Shown piece by piece: positions 12,501 through 32,395 of a stretch of 64,000 nt of DNA; the stretch's first letter is position 1; each line of letters opens with the position of its first letter. A program made the translations under genes and the position numbers. Source of the DNA: Methylorubrum populi (GTDB lineage Bacteria > Pseudomonadota > Alphaproteobacteria > Rhizobiales > Beijerinckiaceae); assembly GCA_020741775.1 (NCBI GenBank), contig DYYG01000063.1, positions 24,429 through 88,428 on the forward strand, given 5' to 3'. A model generated the notes under the pieces. That model was not told the origin of the DNA and made no database searches. It was given only the letters and a program-made list of their open reading frames with translations.

Positions 12501-13871
12501 ATGGCCGAGACCGATCGCGAAGCCAACCGCTTCACTGCCCGCGCGAGCCGCTATGCCAGCGTCGGCGCCAATGTCGGAGGGGTGGCCGCCCGGATGGCGG
12601 CGGCGCGCCTCTTCGGCGGCAAAGACGGGGCGGCCCCCTCGAACGCCGCCGCCCTGGCCCAGGCGCTCGGGGGCCTGAAGGGGCCGATCATGAAGGTGGC
12701 GCAGCTGCTCGCCACCGTTCCGGACCTGCTGCCGCCCGAATACGCCGCCGAATTGCAGAAGCTGCAGGCCGATGCGCCGCCGATGGGCGCCGCCTTCGTC
12801 AAGCGGCGGATGATGGTCGAACTCGGGGCCGACTGGCAGAGCCGCTTCCGTAGCTTCGATCTCAAGCCGGCCGCCGCTGCGTCCCTGGGGCAGGTTCACC
12901 GCGCCGAATCGCTCGACGGAACGCCGCTCGCCTGCAAGCTCCAATATCCCGACATGCAGTCGGCGGTGGAGGCGGACCTCAAGCAGCTTCAGGTCGCCTT
13001 CGCATTCCATCGCCGGATGAATTCCTGGCTCGATACCTCGGAGATCGCCAAGGAGATCGGCGCGCGTGTGCGCGAGGAACTCGATTACGGCCGCGAGGCC
13101 AAGCACGCCGCGCTCTACGGTGACGTGTTGAGAGACATCGACTCGGTGCGCGTGCCGAAGGTCTATCCCGATCTCTCGACGCGGCGTCTGCTGACCCTCG
13201 GCTGGCTCGACGGCGAGAAGATCCTGAACTTCGCTGACAGCCCGATCGAGGTACGCAACCGGATCGCGCAGGCGATGTTCCGGGCCTGGTGGCACCCCTT
13301 CAGCCGCGCCGCGGTGATCCACGGCGATCCGCACCTGGGCAACTACACGGTGTTCTCGGAAGGCGGTGAGGCGCAGGGCATCAACCTCCTCGATTACGGC
13401 TGCGTGCGCATCTTCCACCCGCGCTTCGTCGGCGGCGTGGTCGATCTCTATCGCGGCCTGCTGGAGGACGACCGCGACCGCGTTGTCCACGCCTACGAAG
13501 TGTGGGGATTCAAGAAGCTCGATCGCGAGACGATCGATATCCTCAATATCTGGGCGCGCTTCATCTACGGTCCGCTGCTCGAAGATCGCACCCGCACCGT
13601 CGCCGATGGAGTCGATCCGGGGGCCTATGGCCGGCGCGAGGCCTTTTCCGTGCATCAGGCGCTGAAGGAGCGCGGGCCGGTCACGGTCCCCCAGGAATTC
13701 GTGTTCATGGACCGGGCGGCGGTGGGCCTCGGTGCCGTCTTCCTGCACCTGCGTTCGGAGCTGAATTATCACCGCCTGTTCGAGGCGGAGATCGAGCGCT
13801 TCTCCCTCGAGACCCTGACCAAGCGCCAGGGAGACGCGCTGTCCGCGGTCGGTCTTCCCCTGCCGGAATGA
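12501..13871 (+). CDS. ABC1/AarF/UbiB-family atypical kinase
   Basis: LKGPIMKVAQ, AAASLGQVH, KLQYP, EELDY, HGDPHLGNY, LLDYGC. Confidence 0.92.
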   Translation: MAETDREANRFTARASRYASVGANVGGVAARMAAARLFGGKDGAAPSNAAALAQALGGLKGPIMKVAQLLATVPDLLPPEYAAELQKLQADAPPMGAAFVKRRMMVELGADWQSRFRSFDLKPAAAASLGQVHRAESLDGTPLACKLQYPDMQSAVEADLKQLQVAFAFHRRMNSWLDTSEIAKEIGARVREELDYGREAKHAALYGDVLRDIDSVRVPKVYPDLSTRRLLTLGWLDGEKILNFADSPIEVRNRIAQAMFRAWWHPFSRAAVIHGDPHLGNYTVFSEGGEAQGINLLDYGCVRIFHPRFVGGVVDLYRGLLEDDRDRVVHAYEVWGFKKLDRETIDILNIWARFIYGPLLEDRTRTVADGVDPGAYGRREAFSVHQALKERGPVTVPQEFVFMDRAAVGLGAVFLHLRSELNYHRLFEAEIERFSLETLTKRQGDALSAVGLPLPE

Positions 13872-17522: not shown

Positions 17523-19346
17523 ATGCCACTCTCCTTGTCCCGCGAAACAGCCCTCGACGCGCCGCGTCCCTTTCTCGATGTCGGCGCCTCCGTGCTCGGG
17601 CGGCCCTGGCGCGAACGCTGCGGCGATCCTGGCCTCCAGGCGCTCGCGGTGACGATGACGCAGGCCTACGGTCTGCCCGACCTTCTCTCGCGCGTGCTGG
17701 TCGGGCGCGGCATCCGCCCGGCGGAGGCAGAAGCCTATCTCTCTCCGCGCCTGCGCGACCTGATGCCGGACCCGACCGTCCTGGTGGATATGGAGGCGGC
17801 GGTCGATCGCCTCGCCCATGCCGTGCGAAAGCGGGAGCAGGTGGCGATCTTCGGCGATTACGACGTGGACGGAGCGGCGAGCGCGGCGCTCCTCGCCGAA
17901 TACCTGCAGGCCCTCGGCGTGCCGGTACGGATCCATATCCCGGACCGGATCACCGAGGGCTATGGCCCGAATGTCGGTGCCGTGACGGCCCTGCGCGGGG
18001 AGGGAGCCAGCCTGCTCGTCTGTGTCGATTGCGGCACGGCCGGGCACGAGCCGCTGGCCGCCGCCGCAGCGCTGGGCTTCGACGTGATCGTGTTGGATCA
18101 CCACGGCGCGCCGGAGGCGCTTCCGCCCAACCGCGCCCTGGTCAACCCGAACCGGCTCGACGACCTGTCCGGTCTCGGCCATCTCTGTGCGGCGGGCGTT
18201 GTCTTCATGACCCTCGTCGCCCTCGCCCGGCGGCTACGGGAGGAGGGCGTCTTCGCAACGGGCGCCGAGCCGCGGCTGACCGATTGTCTCGACCTCGTGG
18301 CCCTGGCCACCGTCGCCGACGTGGTGCCGCTCGTCGGCCTCAACCGCGCCTTCGTCGTCCAGGGTCTTGCGGTGATGCGCGGGCGCGGACGTCCGGGCCT
18401 TGCCGCTCTCCTCGATGCGGCCGGTTTGAACGAACCGCCCGAGGCCTGGCATCTCGGCTTCCTCGTCGGCCCCCGCATCAATGCCGGCGGGCGGATCGGA
18501 GATGCCGGCCTCGGCGCTCGGCTCCTGACCACGTCCGACCCGTTGGATGCGCGGTGGATCGCCGAGGAACTCGACCGGCTCAACCGTGAGCGGCAGGCCA
18601 TCGAGGCGCAGGCGGTGGCCGAGGCGGAAGCCGAGATGGACGGGATCCTCGCCCGCGATCCCGACCGCTCCGTGCTGATGACCGCCTCCGCCGAATGGCA
18701 TCCGGGCATCGTCGGATTGATCGCCGCGCGCCTGAAGGAGCGCTTCGGCCGCCCCGCCTTTGCTTTTTCCCTCAAGGCCGATGGAAGCGCGGTCGGCTCC
18801 GGTCGGTCCGTCAGCGGTGCCGATCTCGGCGGCGCCGTGCGCGCCGCGGTGGAAGCGGGCTTGGCCGTGAAGGGCGGCGGCCACGCCATGGCCGCCGGCG
18901 TCACCCTTCCCCCCGGCGGCCTCGCCGCCTTCGAGGACAACCTGTCCCACGCCCTCGCCGAGTCGGTGGGCAGGGCCCGCGCAGCCGAGGCGCTGCTGAT
19001 CGACGGTACCGTCAGTGCCGGGGGGGCGACGGCGGAACTGGTGCGTCTGATCCAGCGCGCCGGCCCATTCGGACAGGGGGCGCCGGAACCCGTGATGGCC
19101 TTGCCGCGCCACCGCATTGCCGATGCCGGGATCGTCGGCAACGGCCATGTCCGGGTGCGGCTGGTGAGCGGTGACGGTCAGGCCATCGGCGGCATCGCTT
19201 TTCGCGCGGCGCAGGGGCCGCTCGGCGTGGCTCTGCTCGGCGGTATCGGCCGCAGCTTCCACGTCGCCGGCACCCTGTCCTGTGACCGCTGGCGCGGCGC
19301 GGAACGCGCCCAGATCCGGGTGTGTGATGTCGCGCCCTGTGGATAG
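17523..19346 (+). CDS. recJ: ssDNA-specific exonuclease RecJ
   Basis: FGDYDVDG, IPDRITEGYGP, VDCG, LDHH (DHH), LATVADVVPL, GPRINAGGR, GGGHAMAAG. Confidence 0.95.
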   Translation: MPLSLSRETALDAPRPFLDVGASVLGRPWRERCGDPGLQALAVTMTQAYGLPDLLSRVLVGRGIRPAEAEAYLSPRLRDLMPDPTVLVDMEAAVDRLAHAVRKREQVAIFGDYDVDGAASAALLAEYLQALGVPVRIHIPDRITEGYGPNVGAVTALRGEGASLLVCVDCGTAGHEPLAAAAALGFDVIVLDHHGAPEALPPNRALVNPNRLDDLSGLGHLCAAGVVFMTLVALARRLREEGVFATGAEPRLTDCLDLVALATVADVVPLVGLNRAFVVQGLAVMRGRGRPGLAALLDAAGLNEPPEAWHLGFLVGPRINAGGRIGDAGLGARLLTTSDPLDARWIAEELDRLNRERQAIEAQAVAEAEAEMDGILARDPDRSVLMTASAEWHPGIVGLIAARLKERFGRPAFAFSLKADGSAVGSGRSVSGADLGGAVRAAVEAGLAVKGGGHAMAAGVTLPPGGLAAFEDNLSHALAESVGRARAAEALLIDGTVSAGGATAELVRLIQRAGPFGQGAPEPVMALPRHRIADAGIVGNGHVRVRLVSGDGQAIGGIAFRAAQGPLGVALLGGIGRSFHVAGTLSCDRWRGAERAQIRVCDVAPCG

Positions 19347-26500: not shown

Positions 26501-27938
26501 CGGCACGCTCTCGGAGGGGCAGGCCGGGATCGACGGGCGCGTCTCCGCCGGACGCGGCGCCGACGTGACGGTGACGGGTTCGGTGCCGGTCGAGGCCGGT
26601 GGCGCGCTCAGTCTGCGTGCTCGGGGCAGCCTCGATGCGGCCCTGGCCAATTCGATGCTGAGCACGACGGGGCAGCGGGCCACCGGCCGGGTGGCGCTCG
26701 ATGCCGGCGTGACCGGCACCCTGGCGGCCCCGAAGGTGGAGGGCACGGCGACCCTTTCAGGTGGCAGCTTCAGCGACCCTCTCAACGGCATCCGTCTCAC
26801 CGACATCCAGGGCCGCGTCACCGGGCGCGGCGAGACCATCGTGATCGAGCGGCTGACTGCCGCGACCCGCAACGGCGGACGCCTCGCCGTTGACGGAAAG
26901 GTGGCGGTCGAGCCAACCTCGGGTTTCCCCGGCTCCTTGCGTATCACCGCCGACCGGGCCGAGCTGGTGTCGAGCCCGTTGATGACGGCGGTGTCGAGCC
27001 TCAACCTCGCCCTGTCGGGTCCGCTCGCCCGCACGCCGAAGATCAGCGGCCGGGTCGATGTCGTCTCCATCGACGTGTCGGTGCCCGACCGCCTGCCCGC
27101 GACGGTGCAGCCCCTGCCGGGCATTCGCCGGGTCAATGAGACACCGGAGGTGCGCGCGCGTCTCGCCAAGCGGGCCGAGCGGAAGGCCCAGATCGCGGCG
27201 GTGAGCCGCCGGAAGAAGGCGGCCCCGCCCTTCGATGCCAGCCTCGATCTGATCGTCAGTGCCCCGAGCCGCATCTTCGTGCGCGGGCGCGGCATCGATG
27301 CGGAACTCGGCGGCGAGCTGCACATCACCGGCACCTCCCGCGACCCGCGGGCCAACGGCGATTTCTCCATGCGCCGGGGCGTGTTCGCCCTGGGCGGCCA
27401 GCGCCTCGACTTCACCCGGGGCCGGGTGTTCTTCGCGGGCGACCTCGCTCAGCCCGACCTCGATTTCGCCGCCGAGACCAAGGCCGCCGACGTGACCGCC
27501 CGCGTCAACGTCACGGGCTCGGCCGCGCAGCCGGAATTCGTGCTCTCGTCGGATCCGAGCCTGCCGCAGGACGAGATCCTGTCCCGCATCCTGTTCAAGA
27601 AGGCGGCGGCGGGGCTCTCGCCTTTCCAGGCGCTGCAATTGGCGCAGGCGGTCGCTCAGCTCTCCGGCGGTGCCGGCGGTCCGGACGTGTTCGAAGCGGC
27701 CCGCAAGGGACTCGGACTCGACAGCCTCGACGTCTCGACCGGAGCGAGCGGCGGCCCGGCGGTCGGCGCCTCGCGCTACATCAACGACCGGATCAGCGTC
27801 GGCGTGAAGGCCGGCGCCAAGCCCGCCGACACCGCCGCGACCATCAATTACGATGTGACCCGCCGGATCAAGCTCAACGGCGAGGCCGGCAGCGACGGCC
27901 GCACCTCGGTCGGCGTCGGCGCGGAATGGGAGTGGTAG
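23580..27938 (+). CDS. tamB: TamB (DUF490/AsmA-like)
   Basis: N-terminal membrane anchor, long beta-rich body, C-terminal RIFVRGRGIDAELGG...SDPSLPQDEILSRILF...VGVGAEWEW; abuts tamA. Confidence 0.9.
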   Translation: MGFLVGTFSRRIGGRGIGAALALLGLLLVAALVPTDLTRAADGEKTVLGGILSKALSTPSSQVSIGAVDGALSSDATIRDVVISDSEGAWLKLDRARLVWRRLALLSGRLEVDTLEIGRLEVLRRPVPGPTPAEAEPDGRLLPELPVKVEIKGFQLAELILGESVAGQPARLAADGKVKLGNPSEGLDLSVDARRLDAAGRFIAQLLFVPKGERLDLKANLVEPAGGLLSKAANLPGTPPIDFNLDGHGTLDSFNAKLDFDAGPEIGARGGARLSRIGTDRRLSLDLTSRIEGLVPGPAAAVFSGETKLEGGLAFADGGGFRIDRLDLTSRTARLGIGGTLTADRVADFSIVARAVPTEGGVTKAAEAELQNLVFDGSLKGPLSAPRVKGNLKAAGLRTRGSALERVEAALNVEPTGADPKTQRFSVTADAVLEGLHLADPALRRALGSRAKLTLRAAAGSDGVLDVSTLVLDADTARVSYAGQLGQNTLTGTVEAALTDIGAFSGVAGRNLAGRLDAKAALSGDPARKALSADLDLRGGGLVLGEVVADRLVGRSPTLTGRVFQTYDGYGFDRLRFDGAEMFATIQGKADARIADVAARIDLKTLSALDERLLGPASVDARLTGSLVKPALTAALRAPDVSANGRPIRDLRLDAAFGDLRGALDGTLHLSGDIAGKPLKAEAAVSRPTRTDYALDRMTFALGSVLAEGRAQIDADSLLGDGTLTIRAGDLADLSPLALAPMAGRLDAAVTLSRAAGKQDAAIRATGASLRYGSFGLAKLDADLTGRDLRAHPVIDGHAAIDRVIAAGQTVDTVRLSASGNAAASDITLTAQARGFALDGAARLIPAERTRIEIARFSAQRGGDRLALAGPAAITLDDGAAVIENLVVAAGSGRISVQGRAGSVLDLKLGIRALPLALARIASPSLALSGTLEGEADIHGPAARPEGRYALSVASLVTPETRKAGLPPITARASGTLSEGQAGIDGRVSAGRGADVTVTGSVPVEAGGALSLRARGSLDAALANSMLSTTGQRATGRVALDAGVTGTLAAPKVEGTATLSGGSFSDPLNGIRLTDIQGRVTGRGETIVIERLTAATRNGGRLAVDGKVAVEPTSGFPGSLRITADRAELVSSPLMTAVSSLNLALSGPLARTPKISGRVDVVSIDVSVPDRLPATVQPLPGIRRVNETPEVRARLAKRAERKAQIAAVSRRKKAAPPFDASLDLIVSAPSRIFVRGRGIDAELGGELHITGTSRDPRANGDFSMRRGVFALGGQRLDFTRGRVFFAGDLAQPDLDFAAETKAADVTARVNVTGSAAQPEFVLSSDPSLPQDEILSRILFKKAAAGLSPFQALQLAQAVAQLSGGAGGPDVFEAARKGLGLDSLDVSTGASGGPAVGASRYINDRISVGVKAGAKPADTAATINYDVTRRIKLNGEAGSDGRTSVGVGAEWEW

Positions 27939-28016
27939 GGCGTCGGCCCGGCCTTTACCGGGACGACGCTCTCAGCGGTGGGCGCTCGATCTGTCGGGCG
28001 CCCGGCACACATCGTC

Positions 28017-28505
28017 CTACGGCTCCTTGAAGCCGTATTCCGGCACGCCGTCGTCGTTGCCGTAATACTTGTAGGGCAGGAACTTGCCGGACATGGCCAG
28101 CTTCACCCGGTCGCCCTTGTTGTTGGCCTCGCGCTCCATGGTCATGTTGAAGTCGATGGCCGACATGATGCCATCGCCGAACTCCTCCTGGATCAGCTCC
28201 TTCCAGGTGGTGCCGTAGACCATCACCAGCTCGTAGAAGCGGTAGATCAGCGGATCGGTCGGCGGCATCTGCGGGATCGAGCCGCGATAGGGCGCCTCGT
28301 TCAGCATCCGCTCCTCGGCCTGGCTCAGGCCGAACAGCGCGGCGGCCTTGGCGGCCTGCGCCTTCGGAAGCTTCATCTGCCCCATGCAGGCGGCGGTGAT
28401 CAGGATCGGCGAGATCCCGCCGATCTCGTCCTGGATGAATTTCCAGGTCCAGCCCTTCTCGCGCTTGATGTCGAGTAGCTTCTCGGTGAGGTCTTCGCGC
28501 TTCAT
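28017..28505 (-). CDS. cynS: Cyanase (cyanate hydratase)
   Basis: PTDPLIYRFYELVMVYG, EEFGDGIMSAIDF, GKFLPY; AGGAG RBS. Confidence 0.95.
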   Translation of the reverse strand: MKREDLTEKLLDIKREKGWTWKFIQDEIGGISPILITAACMGQMKLPKAQAAKAAALFGLSQAEERMLNEAPYRGSIPQMPPTDPLIYRFYELVMVYGTTWKELIQEEFGDGIMSAIDFNMTMEREANNKGDRVKLAMSGKFLPYKYYGNDDGVPEYGFKEP

Positions 28506-28669
28506 GCTGTTCTCCTGTCGCTGGACGACGAGCCGGCTTCGGATGAGCCGTCCGGATGCCGGGGGCGTGGCAACCGGACGGCCGGATCGTCCGCAGATCG
28601 GGACGGATCCTCGGGGCTCGCAGCGGAGAAGCGCACGCGCCTCGCCACGATGCCGCCGGCTAGCGTTGC

Positions 28670-28684
28670 GCAAGCGCTGTGCCA
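28670..28684 (-). promoter_or_regulatory. Sigma-54 -24/-12 promoter facing cynS
   Basis: Minus strand TGGCAC-AGCGC-TTGC, an exact match to TGGCAC-N5-TTGC. Confidence 0.85.
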
Positions 28685-28743
28685 TTGGCATCGTAGATCA
28701 AAAAGCAATCTAGATCAGCAATTTAGAGAAACGGTGCTTTGCT

Positions 28744-28793
28744 ACGAGATCTCGTCTATGACGATATATCGTAGAATGAGTGCGAGATCTCGT
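28744..28793. promoter_or_regulatory. Three 12-bp palindromes, probable enhancer (UAS) for the adjacent activator
   Basis: ACGAGATCTCGT (28744-55), ACGATATATCGT (28761-72), GCGAGATCTCGT (28782-93). Confidence 0.65.
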
Positions 28794-30687
28794 CGTGTCC
28801 GTTTCCGCTTCTGCGTCACTCCCGTCAGATTACGGTAGGGTTTTTGAGGAGACTCACGAAGCCATGCTCGTGATCGAGCCGCTCGCCGACCGTGTCGCCG
28901 ATGCGAATACCGCCGCCGCCCGTCTTCTCGGCCGGTCCCGTGCCGATCTCTGCGCGATGGCGGTCAGTGCGCTGCACCCGGAGCAGCGCGCCGCCCTGAT
29001 CGTGTTTACGGAGGGCGTGCTCGCGCAGGGACGATGGTGGACCCAGGGCCTGACGCCGAGCCATGGCGGCGGGGCTGCGCTGCGGCTCGAATACGTCGCC
29101 TCCCGGCTGTCGGGTGAGCCGACCCGCCTTCTCTTGACGCTGTTCGACCTCGACGAGCGCGAGCGCCGCCGGATCGACCGCGAGGCGGAGGAGCATATGC
29201 GGGCGGGTCTGCCGGAATGGCAGCGGATGGAGCGGATCTTTCGCGATATCGAGCGGGAGAACCGGCTGATCCTGCGAGCGGCCGGGGAGGGGATCTATGG
29301 CGTCAACGCCGAGGGGATCACGACATTCCTCAACCCGGCGGCGGAGCGGATGCTGGGATGGGACGCCGCCGATCTCGTCGGCAAAGACATGCACGCCACC
29401 GTCCACCATACCCATCCCGGCGGAGCGCATTACCCGCATCAGGATTGCCCGATCTACGCCGCCTTCCGCGACGGGGCGGTGCATCAGGTCGATGGCGAGG
29501 TGTTCTGGCGACGGGACGGTACCTGCTTTCCCGTCGAATACACCTCGACCCCGATCCGCGAGCGCGGCCGGTTGCTCGGCGCGGTGATCGTCTTCCGCGA
29601 CGTCAGCCAGCGCCGCGAATCCGAGGAGCGGCTGAGGTCGGCACTGGCCGAGGTCGATTCCCTGCGCGAGCGCCTGGAGCAGGAGAATGCCTATCTGAAG
29701 GAGGAGATCCGGGCCGAGAGCCATCACCAGGGCATCATCGGTCGCAGCCCCGCCATCGAGGCCTTGCGCCGCCAGATCGATCTGGTCGCCGGCACCGACG
29801 CCACCGTCCTCGTCACGGGCGAATCGGGCACCGGCAAGGAGCTGATTGCCCGGGCAATCCATGAGGCCAGCCGGCGGCATGACCGGCCGCTGATCCGGGT
29901 CAATTGCGCGGCCATCCCCCGCGAGCTGTTCGAGAGCGAGTTCTTCGGCCATGCCAAGGGCGCGTTCACCGGGGCCCTGCGCGACCGCATCGGGCGATTC
30001 GAGCTGGCCGAGGGCGGGACGCTTTTCCTTGATGAGGTCGGGGAGATTCCCCTCGATCTTCAGGGCAAATTGCTGCGGGTGCTGCAGGAGCGCCAATTCG
30101 AGCGCGTCGGCGAGGAGCGGACCCGCTCGGTCGATGTCCGGCTGATCGCCGCGACCAACCGCGACCTCAAGGAGGAGGTGCGGCGCGGGCGCTTCCGCGA
30201 GGACCTCTATTTTCGGCTCAACGTGTTCCCTATCGCCTCGGCGCCTTTGCGGGAGCGCCGCGAGGACGTGCCGCTCATCGCCCAGCACGTTCTGAAGAGC
30301 GCCGCCCGGCGCCTCAACCGGACGGATCTGCGCTTGACGGAAGCCGATGCGCGGCGCCTCGCCCGCTACGATTGGCCGGGCAATGTGCGCGAGTTGGAGA
30401 ACGTGATCGAACGTGCCACGATCCTGGCCGAGCGCGGGCGCCTCCGTTTCGATCTGCCGGAGTCGCGCTCAGCCGCCCCCCTCCCGGCTTCGGCGGAGCA
30501 GCCGACGGAAGCCGGCTGCCCGCTCAGCGAGGAGGAGCGCCGCCGCCGCGCCCGCGCGGAGATCGAAGAGGCGCTCCGTCTCGGCGGGGGCAAAGTGTTC
30601 GGGCCGGGCGGTGCCGCTGAGTTGCTGGGTCTCAAGCCAACGACCTTGCGATCCCGTATGAGGGCGCTCGGTATCCTGCGCCCCTGA
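28780..30687 (+). CDS. PAS-PAS sigma-54-dependent activator with Fis HTH; start uncertain
   Basis: Two PAS-like domains, [33 protein letters not shown]-terminal [17 protein letters not shown]; no receiver domain. Confidence 0.92.
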
Positions 30688-30874
30688 GAAAAGGGAAGGA
30701 ACCCGCTTCATCACCGCGTCAACAACCGTCCCTGACGGCTGGGACCGGCCCTTCGCATGGCTGTCATTCCCGTCTGCTTGGGTCTTCTCCATCCTCTCCC
30801 GGACTGCACCCTCGTGCCGTGATGGGGATCACCCCGCGCGAACACCTTGTGCGAGCCGCAGCCGAGTAGACCCG

Positions 30875-32395
30875 TTGAGACTGAGGACGAACACGGATTC
30901 GTGGGAGGGATGCCGCCGGACAAGGCGCGGCAGGATCCTCACCGCTCTGCTGCTGGGATGGCTGCCGATCCTGGCGGCGACCCATGCCTCGGCTCAGGCG
31001 CAGCGCCCGCTGCCGCTGGCCCTTCCGCTCTCGGGCGCGGGCGGCGACCCTCAGACGGCGATCGCGCAATCGCGCACGTCGGATCAAGTCTCCGTCACCA
31101 ACCAAGGCTCGATCCAGGAGGCGCTCGGACCCTACGGCGACCCGTTCGGCCTGCGCGCCTTCCTGGCCGCGCGGGGCATCACCTATGTCCTCACCTATAT
31201 CGGTGAGGGCTTGTCGAACGTGTCGGGCGGGCTGCGGCGCGGGGCGACCTATGGCGGTCGCCTCGACACGTCCCTCGACATCGATCTCGACACGCTGATG
31301 GGCTGGCGCGGCGCGCGCTTTCACACCGACTTCTTCCAGATCCACGGCCACGGGCTTTCGGCGCGGTACGTCAACAACCTGACTACGGTCACCGGCATCG
31401 AGGCCTTGCCCTCGACGCGGCTGTTCGAGCTGTGGATCGAGCAGCGCCTGTTCGACGACACGCTCTCGGTGAAACTCGGGCAGATCTCGGCCGATACCGA
31501 GTTCGCCATCGCCCAGTCTGCGGTGGTGTTCATGAATGCCGGTTTCGGCTGGCCCAATGTCGGCGCCGTCGTCATGCCGAGCGGCGGGCCGATCTATCCG
31601 CTGGCGACACCCGCCATCCGCCTGAAATACGAGCCGACGCCCGAACTCTCCTTCCAGGGCGGCCTGTTCAACGGCGACCCGGCGGGCAAACCGGCTCCGG
31701 GCGACGAGACCGACCCACAGCAGCGCAACCGCACCGGCACCGCTTTCCGCCTCAACGATCCGGCCCTGCTGCTCGGTGAGGTGTCCTATGCCTATCCGGC
31801 CCTTCCTGGCACGGAGCAGCTGCCCGGCACCGCGACCCTGGGCGGCTGGTATCATTTCGGCCGCTTCGAGAGCCCGCGCCTCGACAGCGTGCAGGGGCGC
31901 CTGCTGGCGGACCCGGAAGCCAGCGGCATTTCCCGCCGGTTTCGCGGCAATGCCGGGATCTACGCCATCCTCGACCAGACGCTCTACCGGGAGCCGGGCA
32001 CGGCCAGCCAGGGCGCCTCGGCCTTCCTGCGCTTCTCCGCCGTGCCGAGCGACCGCAACCTGATCGACCTCTATGTCGATACCGGCTTGGCCTATCGGGG
32101 TCTGTTTCCCGGCCGGCCGAACGACACGCTGGGCCTCGGCATGATCCATTCCCGCATCAGCCCGGAAGCGCGGGCCTTCGACCGGGAATCGCTGCTCTAC
32201 GGCTCCGGGACACGCCTGCTGCGGAGCAGCGAGACGGTATTCGAGGCGACCTATCAGGCGGAAATGGTGCCGGGTCTGACCCTGCAGCCCGACCTGCAAT
32301 ATGTCATGCGACCCGGTGGCGGTCTTGTCGATCAGCGCGGCCGGCGGCTGCGGAACGCCACGGTGCTCGGGCTACGCGCGACGATCAATTATTGA
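30875..32395 (+). CDS. OprB-family carbohydrate-selective porin
   Basis: RLFELWIEQ, KLGQISADTEF, YPLATPAIR, ETVFEATYQA, LQPDLQYVMRPGG, terminal LRATINY. Confidence 0.9.
   Translation: MRLRTNTDSWEGCRRTRRGRILTALLLGWLPILAATHASAQAQRPLPLALPLSGAGGDPQTAIAQSRTSDQVSVTNQGSIQEALGPYGDPFGLRAFLAARGITYVLTYIGEGLSNVSGGLRRGATYGGRLDTSLDIDLDTLMGWRGARFHTDFFQIHGHGLSARYVNNLTTVTGIEALPSTRLFELWIEQRLFDDTLSVKLGQISADTEFAIAQSAVVFMNAGFGWPNVGAVVMPSGGPIYPLATPAIRLKYEPTPELSFQGGLFNGDPAGKPAPGDETDPQQRNRTGTAFRLNDPALLLGEVSYAYPALPGTEQLPGTATLGGWYHFGRFESPRLDSVQGRLLADPEASGISRRFRGNAGIYAILDQTLYREPGTASQGASAFLRFSAVPSDRNLIDLYVDTGLAYRGLFPGRPNDTLGLGMIHSRISPEARAFDRESLLYGSGTRLLRSSETVFEATYQAEMVPGLTLQPDLQYVMRPGGGLVDQRGRRLRNATVLGLRATINY

Follow-up and report, generated by a model that had tools for sequence, protein, structure and literature searches.

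A reduced, probably CynF-type cyn cluster in Methylorubrum populi, with cynS under probable control of sigma-54 and a divergently encoded PAS-PAS activator

The cyanase gene of Escherichia coli is controlled by CynR, a LysR-type sigma-70 activator, and belongs to the cynTSX operon, which includes the carbonic anhydrase gene cynT and cynX, whereas the cyanobacterial cynABDS genes depend on NtcA, a CRP-family regulator acting at sigma-70-type promoters, without sigma-54 or an AAA+ activator. Both of these regulators were listed in the initial annotation of the locus described here, which omitted a third, CynF of Pseudomonas pseudoalcaligenes (oleovorans) CECT5344, a sigma-54-dependent Fis-type activator encoded divergently from cynABDS (PMC6627978). 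A knock-out of cynF in Pseudomonas displays neither cyanase activity nor growth on cyanate, and the Pseudomonas cyn system is cyanate-inducible and ammonium-repressed, the repression being credited by the authors to Ntr control (PMC6627978). The intergenic region between cynF and cynA of Pseudomonas harbors ACGATATCTCGT, 11 nt, ACGAAATCTCGT, 5 nt and ACGAGATT(T)TCGT, followed by the sigma-54 site (PMC6627978, Figure S1). Sigma-54 promoters before cyanate lyase genes were also reported, in a computational study, to be enriched in Alpha- and Gammaproteobacteria (PMC12316311), and cynS is down in rpoN mutants of Bradyrhizobium (PMC13207237).

The window, which is the whole stretch of 64,000 nucleotides of Methylorubrum populi DNA analysed here, contains a cyanase gene on the minus strand and a divergently transcribed activator gene, with the features listed in Table 1. 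Orthology and phylogenetic footprinting, on which the model is based, indicate with a probability of about 0.88 that the window holds a CynF-type cyn cluster in reduced form, in which CynF and sigma-54 would drive cynS.

Table 1. Positions of the genes, domains and regulatory features of the cynS-cynF locus in the window.
Feature	Position	Strand	Basis
cynS, cyanase (162 codons + stop)	28017-28505	minus	Pfam Cyanate_lyase and CYNS_N
Predicted 5' leader of cynS, ~153 nt	28506-28658	minus	length taken from promoter position
GC-rich leader hairpin GCCGUCCGGUUGCC...GGCAUCCGGACGGC, without U-tract	28546-28583	minus	fold
Sigma-54 promoter TGGCAC-N5-TTGC, TGGCACAGCGCTTGC	28670-28684	minus	pattern match and conserved position
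AT-rich spacer between boxes and promoter, ~41% GC in a 67% GC window	28685-28743		composition
Box 3, nearest the promoter, ACGAGATCTCGT, putative site of CynF binding	28744-28755		alignment of loci
Box 2, ACGATATATCGT	28761-28772		alignment of loci
Box 1, cynF-proximal, GCGAGATCTCGT	28782-28793		overlaps cynF start region
cynF orthologue, sigma-54 enhancer-binding protein, 635 aa	28780-30687	plus	orthology and Pfam domains
PAS1, residues 19-123	28834-29148	plus	AlphaFold pLDDT ~95; weak Pfam PAS; tandem-PAS Foldseek matches
PAS2, residues 168-274	29281-29601	plus	Pfam PAS 64.9 bits; AlphaFold model
AAA+ sigma-54 interaction domain	29734-30234	plus	Pfam Sigma54_activat 247 bits
Fis-type HTH	30595-30675	plus	HTH_8 E = 1e-3, below cut-off

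The cyanase assignment was well supported, as the Cyanate_lyase domain (the TIGR00673 / PF02560 cyanase test) scored 121.7 bits against a Pfam cut-off of 25, the R-x-x-E and GIMSAIDF serine motifs were found in the encoded CynS, and a close cynS orthologue passes the NCBIfam cyanase model. The mechanically called open reading frame extends to 28691; the start was nevertheless set at the ATG at 28505, because every orthologue begins with MKREDLTEKL. The gene is present as a single copy in the genome, and it was detected in all 36 congeners (36/36) with identities of 87–96%. The open reading frames and Pfam matches between 23.5 and 34 kb disclosed no cynT, cynX or LysR gene within 5 kb on either side of cynS, in agreement with the initial annotation, which had described cynS as standing alone, and the neighbouring genes encode a TamB-like protein and an OprB porin. 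The locus resembles the CynR/cynTSX system of E. coli in having a divergently encoded regulator of the cyanase gene and predicted cyanate-responsive control, but differs from it in lacking the LysR regulator, cynT and cynX.

The activator gene may start at the GTG at 28780 or at the in-frame GTG at 28795. Its product had been described as a receiver-less PAS-PAS-AAA+(GAFTGA)-HTH protein, and this architecture was confirmed by the Pfam domains, which include no receiver domain, together with two PAS folds in an AlphaFold model built on 61 orthologues. The solid Pfam PAS match spans residues 161-280, with the first PAS and HTH_8 matched only below the Pfam cut-off, and AAA_lid_14 was matched as well. 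The protein carries the features of an enhancer-binding protein, namely the Sigma54_activat domain, the GAFTGA loop (residues 394-399 by alignment, corresponding to 29959-29976) and a C-terminal Fis-type HTH with a weak Pfam score, the last of which is nearly identical to the HTH of Pseudomonas CynF and of the sister activators that share its boxes.

The orthology of this protein to CynF was assessed through Pseudomonas sediminis (L067), whose activator is identical over its first 35 residues to the published N-terminus of CECT5344 CynF. The window's activator displays 58% identity to the P. sediminis CynF over 618 of its 635 residues, both PAS domains included, and 52% identity to Pseudomonas CynF in the sensor region alone. 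The two proteins are reciprocal best matches, with 729 bits against 280 for the next among the 19 sigma-54 activators of the Pseudomonas genome, and only one protein with a CynF-type sensor exists in the window's genome. By sequence comparison, the window's activator is therefore an orthologue of CynF. The likeness to cynFABDS of CECT5344 extends to the layout of the locus, where an orthologous PAS-PAS-AAA+-HTH activator without receiver is divergent from a cyn structural gene, a sigma-54 promoter faces that structural gene, and three boxes lie between regulator and promoter. The two differ in that no cynABD genes stand between promoter and cynS in the window, in the spacing of box 1 and box 2 (9 nt in the window, 11 in Pseudomonas), in the -24 element (consensus TGGCAC in the window, TGGTAC in Pseudomonas), and in the predicted leader of about 153 nt of the window.

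The promoter TGGCACAGCGCTTGC, which had been noticed as a perfect TGGCAC-N5-TTGC facing cynS and was recovered as such, is the sole perfect match in the window, where 0.08 were expected, and one of six in the 4.7-Mb genome, in which rpoN was also found. Taken alone, such a match is weak evidence for a sigma-54 promoter; it becomes strong because the site holds the same position in the orthologous loci. Upstream of it, the three boxes are ACGA-N4-TCGT palindromes that form the single three-box site of the window's genome, and in the aligned Methylobacterium loci they are 9–10 and 5 nt apart, with the promoter 58–59 nt past the third. Three ACGA-N4-TCGT boxes are likewise the predicted upstream activating sequences common to the window and the cynF-cynA region of Pseudomonas. 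Since box 1 overlaps the start region of cynF, autoregulation is likely, and CynF probably limits its own expression. No match to the IHF consensus within one mismatch was found in the AT-rich spacer.

The distribution of this arrangement was surveyed by a three-box scan covering one genome per prokaryotic species, which returned at least 120 loci. An activator with a CynF-like sensor (34–85% identity) lies beside the boxes in at least 90 of them. For the 76 listed loci in which the first downstream gene could be read, this gene is cynA in at least 60 and cynS in at least 11 (71/76 together), and among the matches listed a sigma-54 site occurs 46–71 nt after box 3 in 68 of the 95 cyn-linked loci. 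The taxa among the matches listed include Methylobacterium, Bradyrhizobium, Afipia, Bosea, Azospirillum and Thalassospira, as well as Marinobacter, Halomonadaceae, Cellvibrio and Pseudomonas. At no fewer than 16 of the at least 120 three-box loci, the encoded activator is of the GAF or GAF-PAS type, with an HTH close to identical to that of CynF. The GAF-type loci belong to Acidobacteria, Planctomycetes, Verrucomicrobia and others, and their boxes and sigma-54 promoter precede a CMD/AhpD-like gene. These activators share with CynF the C-terminal HTH, the three-box array and the sigma-54 promoter, but their GAF-based sensor is not homologous to the PAS pair of CynF, and their target is a carboxymuconolactone-decarboxylase-family gene instead of cyn genes. 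The three boxes hence mark an HTH subfamily and not CynF alone, because GAF-type activators share them.

The synteny of cynS with the activator, a point raised in the initial annotation, was seen in Methylobacterium relatives, in outgroup families and in further taxa. In eight genomes, that of the window among them, the activator orthologue and cynS diverge directly from each other, and in 12 other congeners and two further families of the order the orthologue lies about 3.4 kb from cynS. In one such locus (L037), cynF and cynS are separated by genes for a substrate-binding protein (NMT1_2), a permease of the NtrB type (225 bits, over the equivalog cut-off) and an ATPase of the NtrCD type, and these three correspond to cynABD. 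The arrangement with cynF divergent from cynABDS prevails in most Methylobacterium relatives and in the outgroups, and the comparison of gene orders shows it to be the ancestral one; since cynFABDS is found in the outgroups and in most taxa, the direct pairing of cynF and cynS in the window is derived. This minimal pairing recurs in separate lineages, represented among the matches listed by Methylobacterium sp. NEAU K, Skermanella aerolata, Cellvibrio mixtus and Alteromonadaceae MAGs. The NtcA-dependent cyanobacterial genes, in which cyanase is likewise tied to an NrtA-like ABC transporter and to nitrogen status, are arranged in the same order as the ancestral cynABDS.

The transporter genes of the window's genome were located on another contig (C46, 18922-22090), where the encoded proteins share 78%, 90% and 88% identity with CynA, CynB and CynD of a congener, and a second close copy of cynABD is absent from the genomes that retain cynFABDS. 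Maximum-likelihood analysis places the C46 CynA inside the Methylobacteriaceae CynA clade with support of 100/100, on a long branch of 0.31 against a median of 0.07. Because of this nesting, the C46 transporter is taken to be a relocated orthologue and not a foreign paralogue. Simple loss of cynABD was considered and is ruled out in the window's genome by these C46 orthologues, but it holds for several close relatives, in which cynF is divergent from cynS and no cynABD exists at all. The C46 cynABD genes stand behind a different sigma-54 promoter, TGGCGC-N5-TTGC, and a CGACATTGTCG palindrome pair, which also occurs upstream of a perfect sigma-54 promoter beside a GAF-type activator. The cluster of that GAF-type activator was observed to hold OsmC, a rubredoxin-reductase fusion, a metallo-beta-lactamase-fold protein and TauE. 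As the transporter genes have left the cluster, CynF appears to control cynS alone in the window's genome, and with cynABD elsewhere the role of cynS could be the detoxification of internal cyanate rather than assimilation.

The leader of cynS was searched for traces of the departed genes, and no remnants of cynA or cynD were found in its 153 nt by blastn-short and by translation against cynABD loci. The fold of the whole leader is not exceptional (z = -1.9), no terminator-like site was found in it, and the leader was on both counts rejected as an attenuator. The Rfam search of 27500-31500 for known RNA elements returned only a chance-level match (E = 0.82). Hairpins resembling the one in the cynS leader were observed in L003, L010 and L013 and in cynD-cynS spacers.

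In the model assembled from these features, an oligomer of CynF would bind the three ACGA-N4-TCGT palindromes (28744-28793), and a cyanate-related signal would enter through its tandem PAS sensor. CynF would then contact the sigma-54 holoenzyme across the AT-rich spacer of about 60 nt and, by ATP hydrolysis, open the promoter at 28670-28684, so that transcription of cynS would begin at the predicted start near 28658 on the minus strand. CynF may at the same time curb its own expression through the boxes that abut or overlap the cynF start. Induction by cyanate and repression by ammonium are taken over from Pseudomonas, where CynF is essential, and would apply here by analogy.

Another possibility is that the cynS promoter is fired mainly by NtrC or some other distant activator, with the PAS-PAS protein being accessory or regulating something else, which is considered improbable for the window. 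Methylobacterium species without cynF keep TGGCA[CT]-N5-TTGC 67–103 nt before cynS, and since these congeners retain a sigma-54 promoter, another activator, possibly NtrC, can drive cynS in the genus; several of them share a different upstream motif, GGTGCAnnGAAAnCACGCT, and the ammonium repression in Pseudomonas, put down to Ntr control by its authors, points the same way (PMC6627978). The window's promoter, however, is preceded at a fixed and conserved distance by the boxes that accompany CynF in at least 90 loci, the intergenic region here showed no GGTGCA motif of the kind found in the cynF-less species, and in Pseudomonas a cynF mutant lacks cyanase whatever the nitrogen source (PMC6627978). 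Control of cynS by sigma-54 and the adjacent PAS-PAS activator instead of CynR, as originally suggested, therefore gains support from the conserved boxes and promoter and from the orthology to CynF.

The further suggestion that this would be an uncharacterised route, with a PAS sensor of a new kind in the place of CynR, has become highly improbable. It could draw on the lack of CynR, cynT and cynX nearby and on NCBIfam, which has no dedicated model for the activator and places all matches under the equivalog cut-offs; but it is contradicted by the orthology (58% identity, reciprocal best match) to a CynF that is genetically known in Pseudomonas (PMC6627978), and the cynF arrangement is widespread and already present in the literature (PMC6627978, PMC13207237, PMC12316311). 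A chance promoter match with cynS transcribed from an unrecognised sigma-70 promoter is the least credible explanation, for although 8 of 100 shuffles of the window contained at least one perfect match, the promoter position is conserved in the orthologous loci and no sigma-70-like site was found in 27900-28900. The reading of the window as a CynF-type cluster driven by sigma-54 is accordingly retained, and its cynS switch is an ordinary member of the known and widespread sigma-54/CynF system.

The sensor of CynF exhibits differential conservation, with PAS2 being its most conserved part, and H205, H209, G215 and C223-P224-I225 of PAS2 are invariant across the 61 orthologues. These residues surround a long E-F loop that shows lower confidence in the AlphaFold model, and the His/His/Cys set is compatible with a cofactor or metal site. 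Comparison of PAS2 by sequence with solved structures gave weak matches to PA0861 and FixL (E = 1e-7 to 1e-5), and the best Foldseek matches were generic tandem-PAS proteins, such as DosP, FixL, LOV-PAS, PpsR and NifL; a cofactor of PAS2 was identified by neither search. Direct binding of cyanate or thiocyanate by the PAS domains, as the initial annotation proposed, may occur, the findings speaking neither for nor against it. It is conceivable, if rather doubtful, that a cofactor or metal centre in PAS2 (H205/H209/C223) lets CynF sense cyanate directly, and that its HTH and three-box module has been combined anew, in other phyla, with GAF sensors that serve an AhpD-like stress regulon. If true, cyanate sensing by PAS2 would bring a small pseudohalide anion among the PAS ligands as a new class, and H205, H209 and C223 are candidate sensor residues for mutagenesis.

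The findings in the window leave the understanding of cyanate regulation unchanged; what they add to it is modest, namely the prediction of the operator, the relocation of the transporter and the conserved His/His/Cys set. A description of a three-box CynF operator was not found in the publications consulted, and what is gained is a predicted CynF operator whose distance from the promoter is fixed and which is conserved from Pseudomonas to Methylobacterium, together with evidence for the cynF-cynS pairing as a recurrent derivative of cynFABDS. The name CynF can be given to the activator and to its numerous orthologues in Alpha- and Gammaproteobacteria, and the window's cynS can be placed in the sigma-54 regulon.

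In the second PAS domain of CynF, the PAS-PAS sigma-54 activator of cyanase, the residues H205, H209, G215 and C223-P224-I225 showed no variation across 61 orthologues and ring a loop of lower model confidence, and this segment is a candidate for binding a cofactor or a metal. Sigma-54 activators carrying GAF or GAF-PAS domains form a sister group that has its HTH in common with CynF. These activators, found in Acidobacteria, Planctomycetes, Verrucomicrobia and Desulfosarcina, have a CMD/AhpD-like gene as their target, and their loci also exhibit three ACGA-N4-TCGT boxes and a sigma-54 promoter, accounting for 16 of the 120 loci listed among the matches (at least 120) of the three-box scan, such as L053, L078, L095, L105 and L111.

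The TGGCA[CT]-N5-TTGC promoter was retained 67-103 nt upstream of cynS in Methylobacterium genomes without cynF (loci L039-L047), and in several cynF-less cynS loci it is preceded by the motif GGTGCAnnGAAAnCACGCT, possibly an NtrC-type site. The cynS leader of the window harbors a strong GC-rich hairpin that lacks a U-tract; comparable hairpins were observed upstream of cynS in relatives, some of them within the cynD-cynS spacer. More than one cynS copy was detected in two relatives: a close relative carries a partial second copy (residues 77-162, 85% identity; G034:C1:2892776-2893033) shortly 3' of its resident cynS, and a second relative carries two full-length, widely separated copies, one of them at G031:C1:4874495-4874980.

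Features located in the window and on contig C46 of the same genome
Feature	Location	Strand
GC-rich hairpin, cynS leader	window 28546-28583	minus
Conserved CynF residues 205-225	window 29392-29454	
cynABD orthologues	L169:7922-11090 = contig C46:18922-22090	
Upstream elements	contig C46, about 13745-13860 and 18800-18900	

The cynABD transporter orthologues of this genome now lie outside the cyn cluster, where they are preceded by TGGCGC-N5-TTGC and CGACATTGTCG palindromes, and the relocated CynA occupies a long branch within the Methylobacterium clade. The same palindromes occur on contig C46 upstream of a perfect sigma-54 promoter, whose neighbors encode a GAF-type activator, OsmC, a rubredoxin-reductase fusion, an MBL-fold protein and TauE. 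The cyanate transporter may have been rewired into a sulfur-related sigma-54 regulon.
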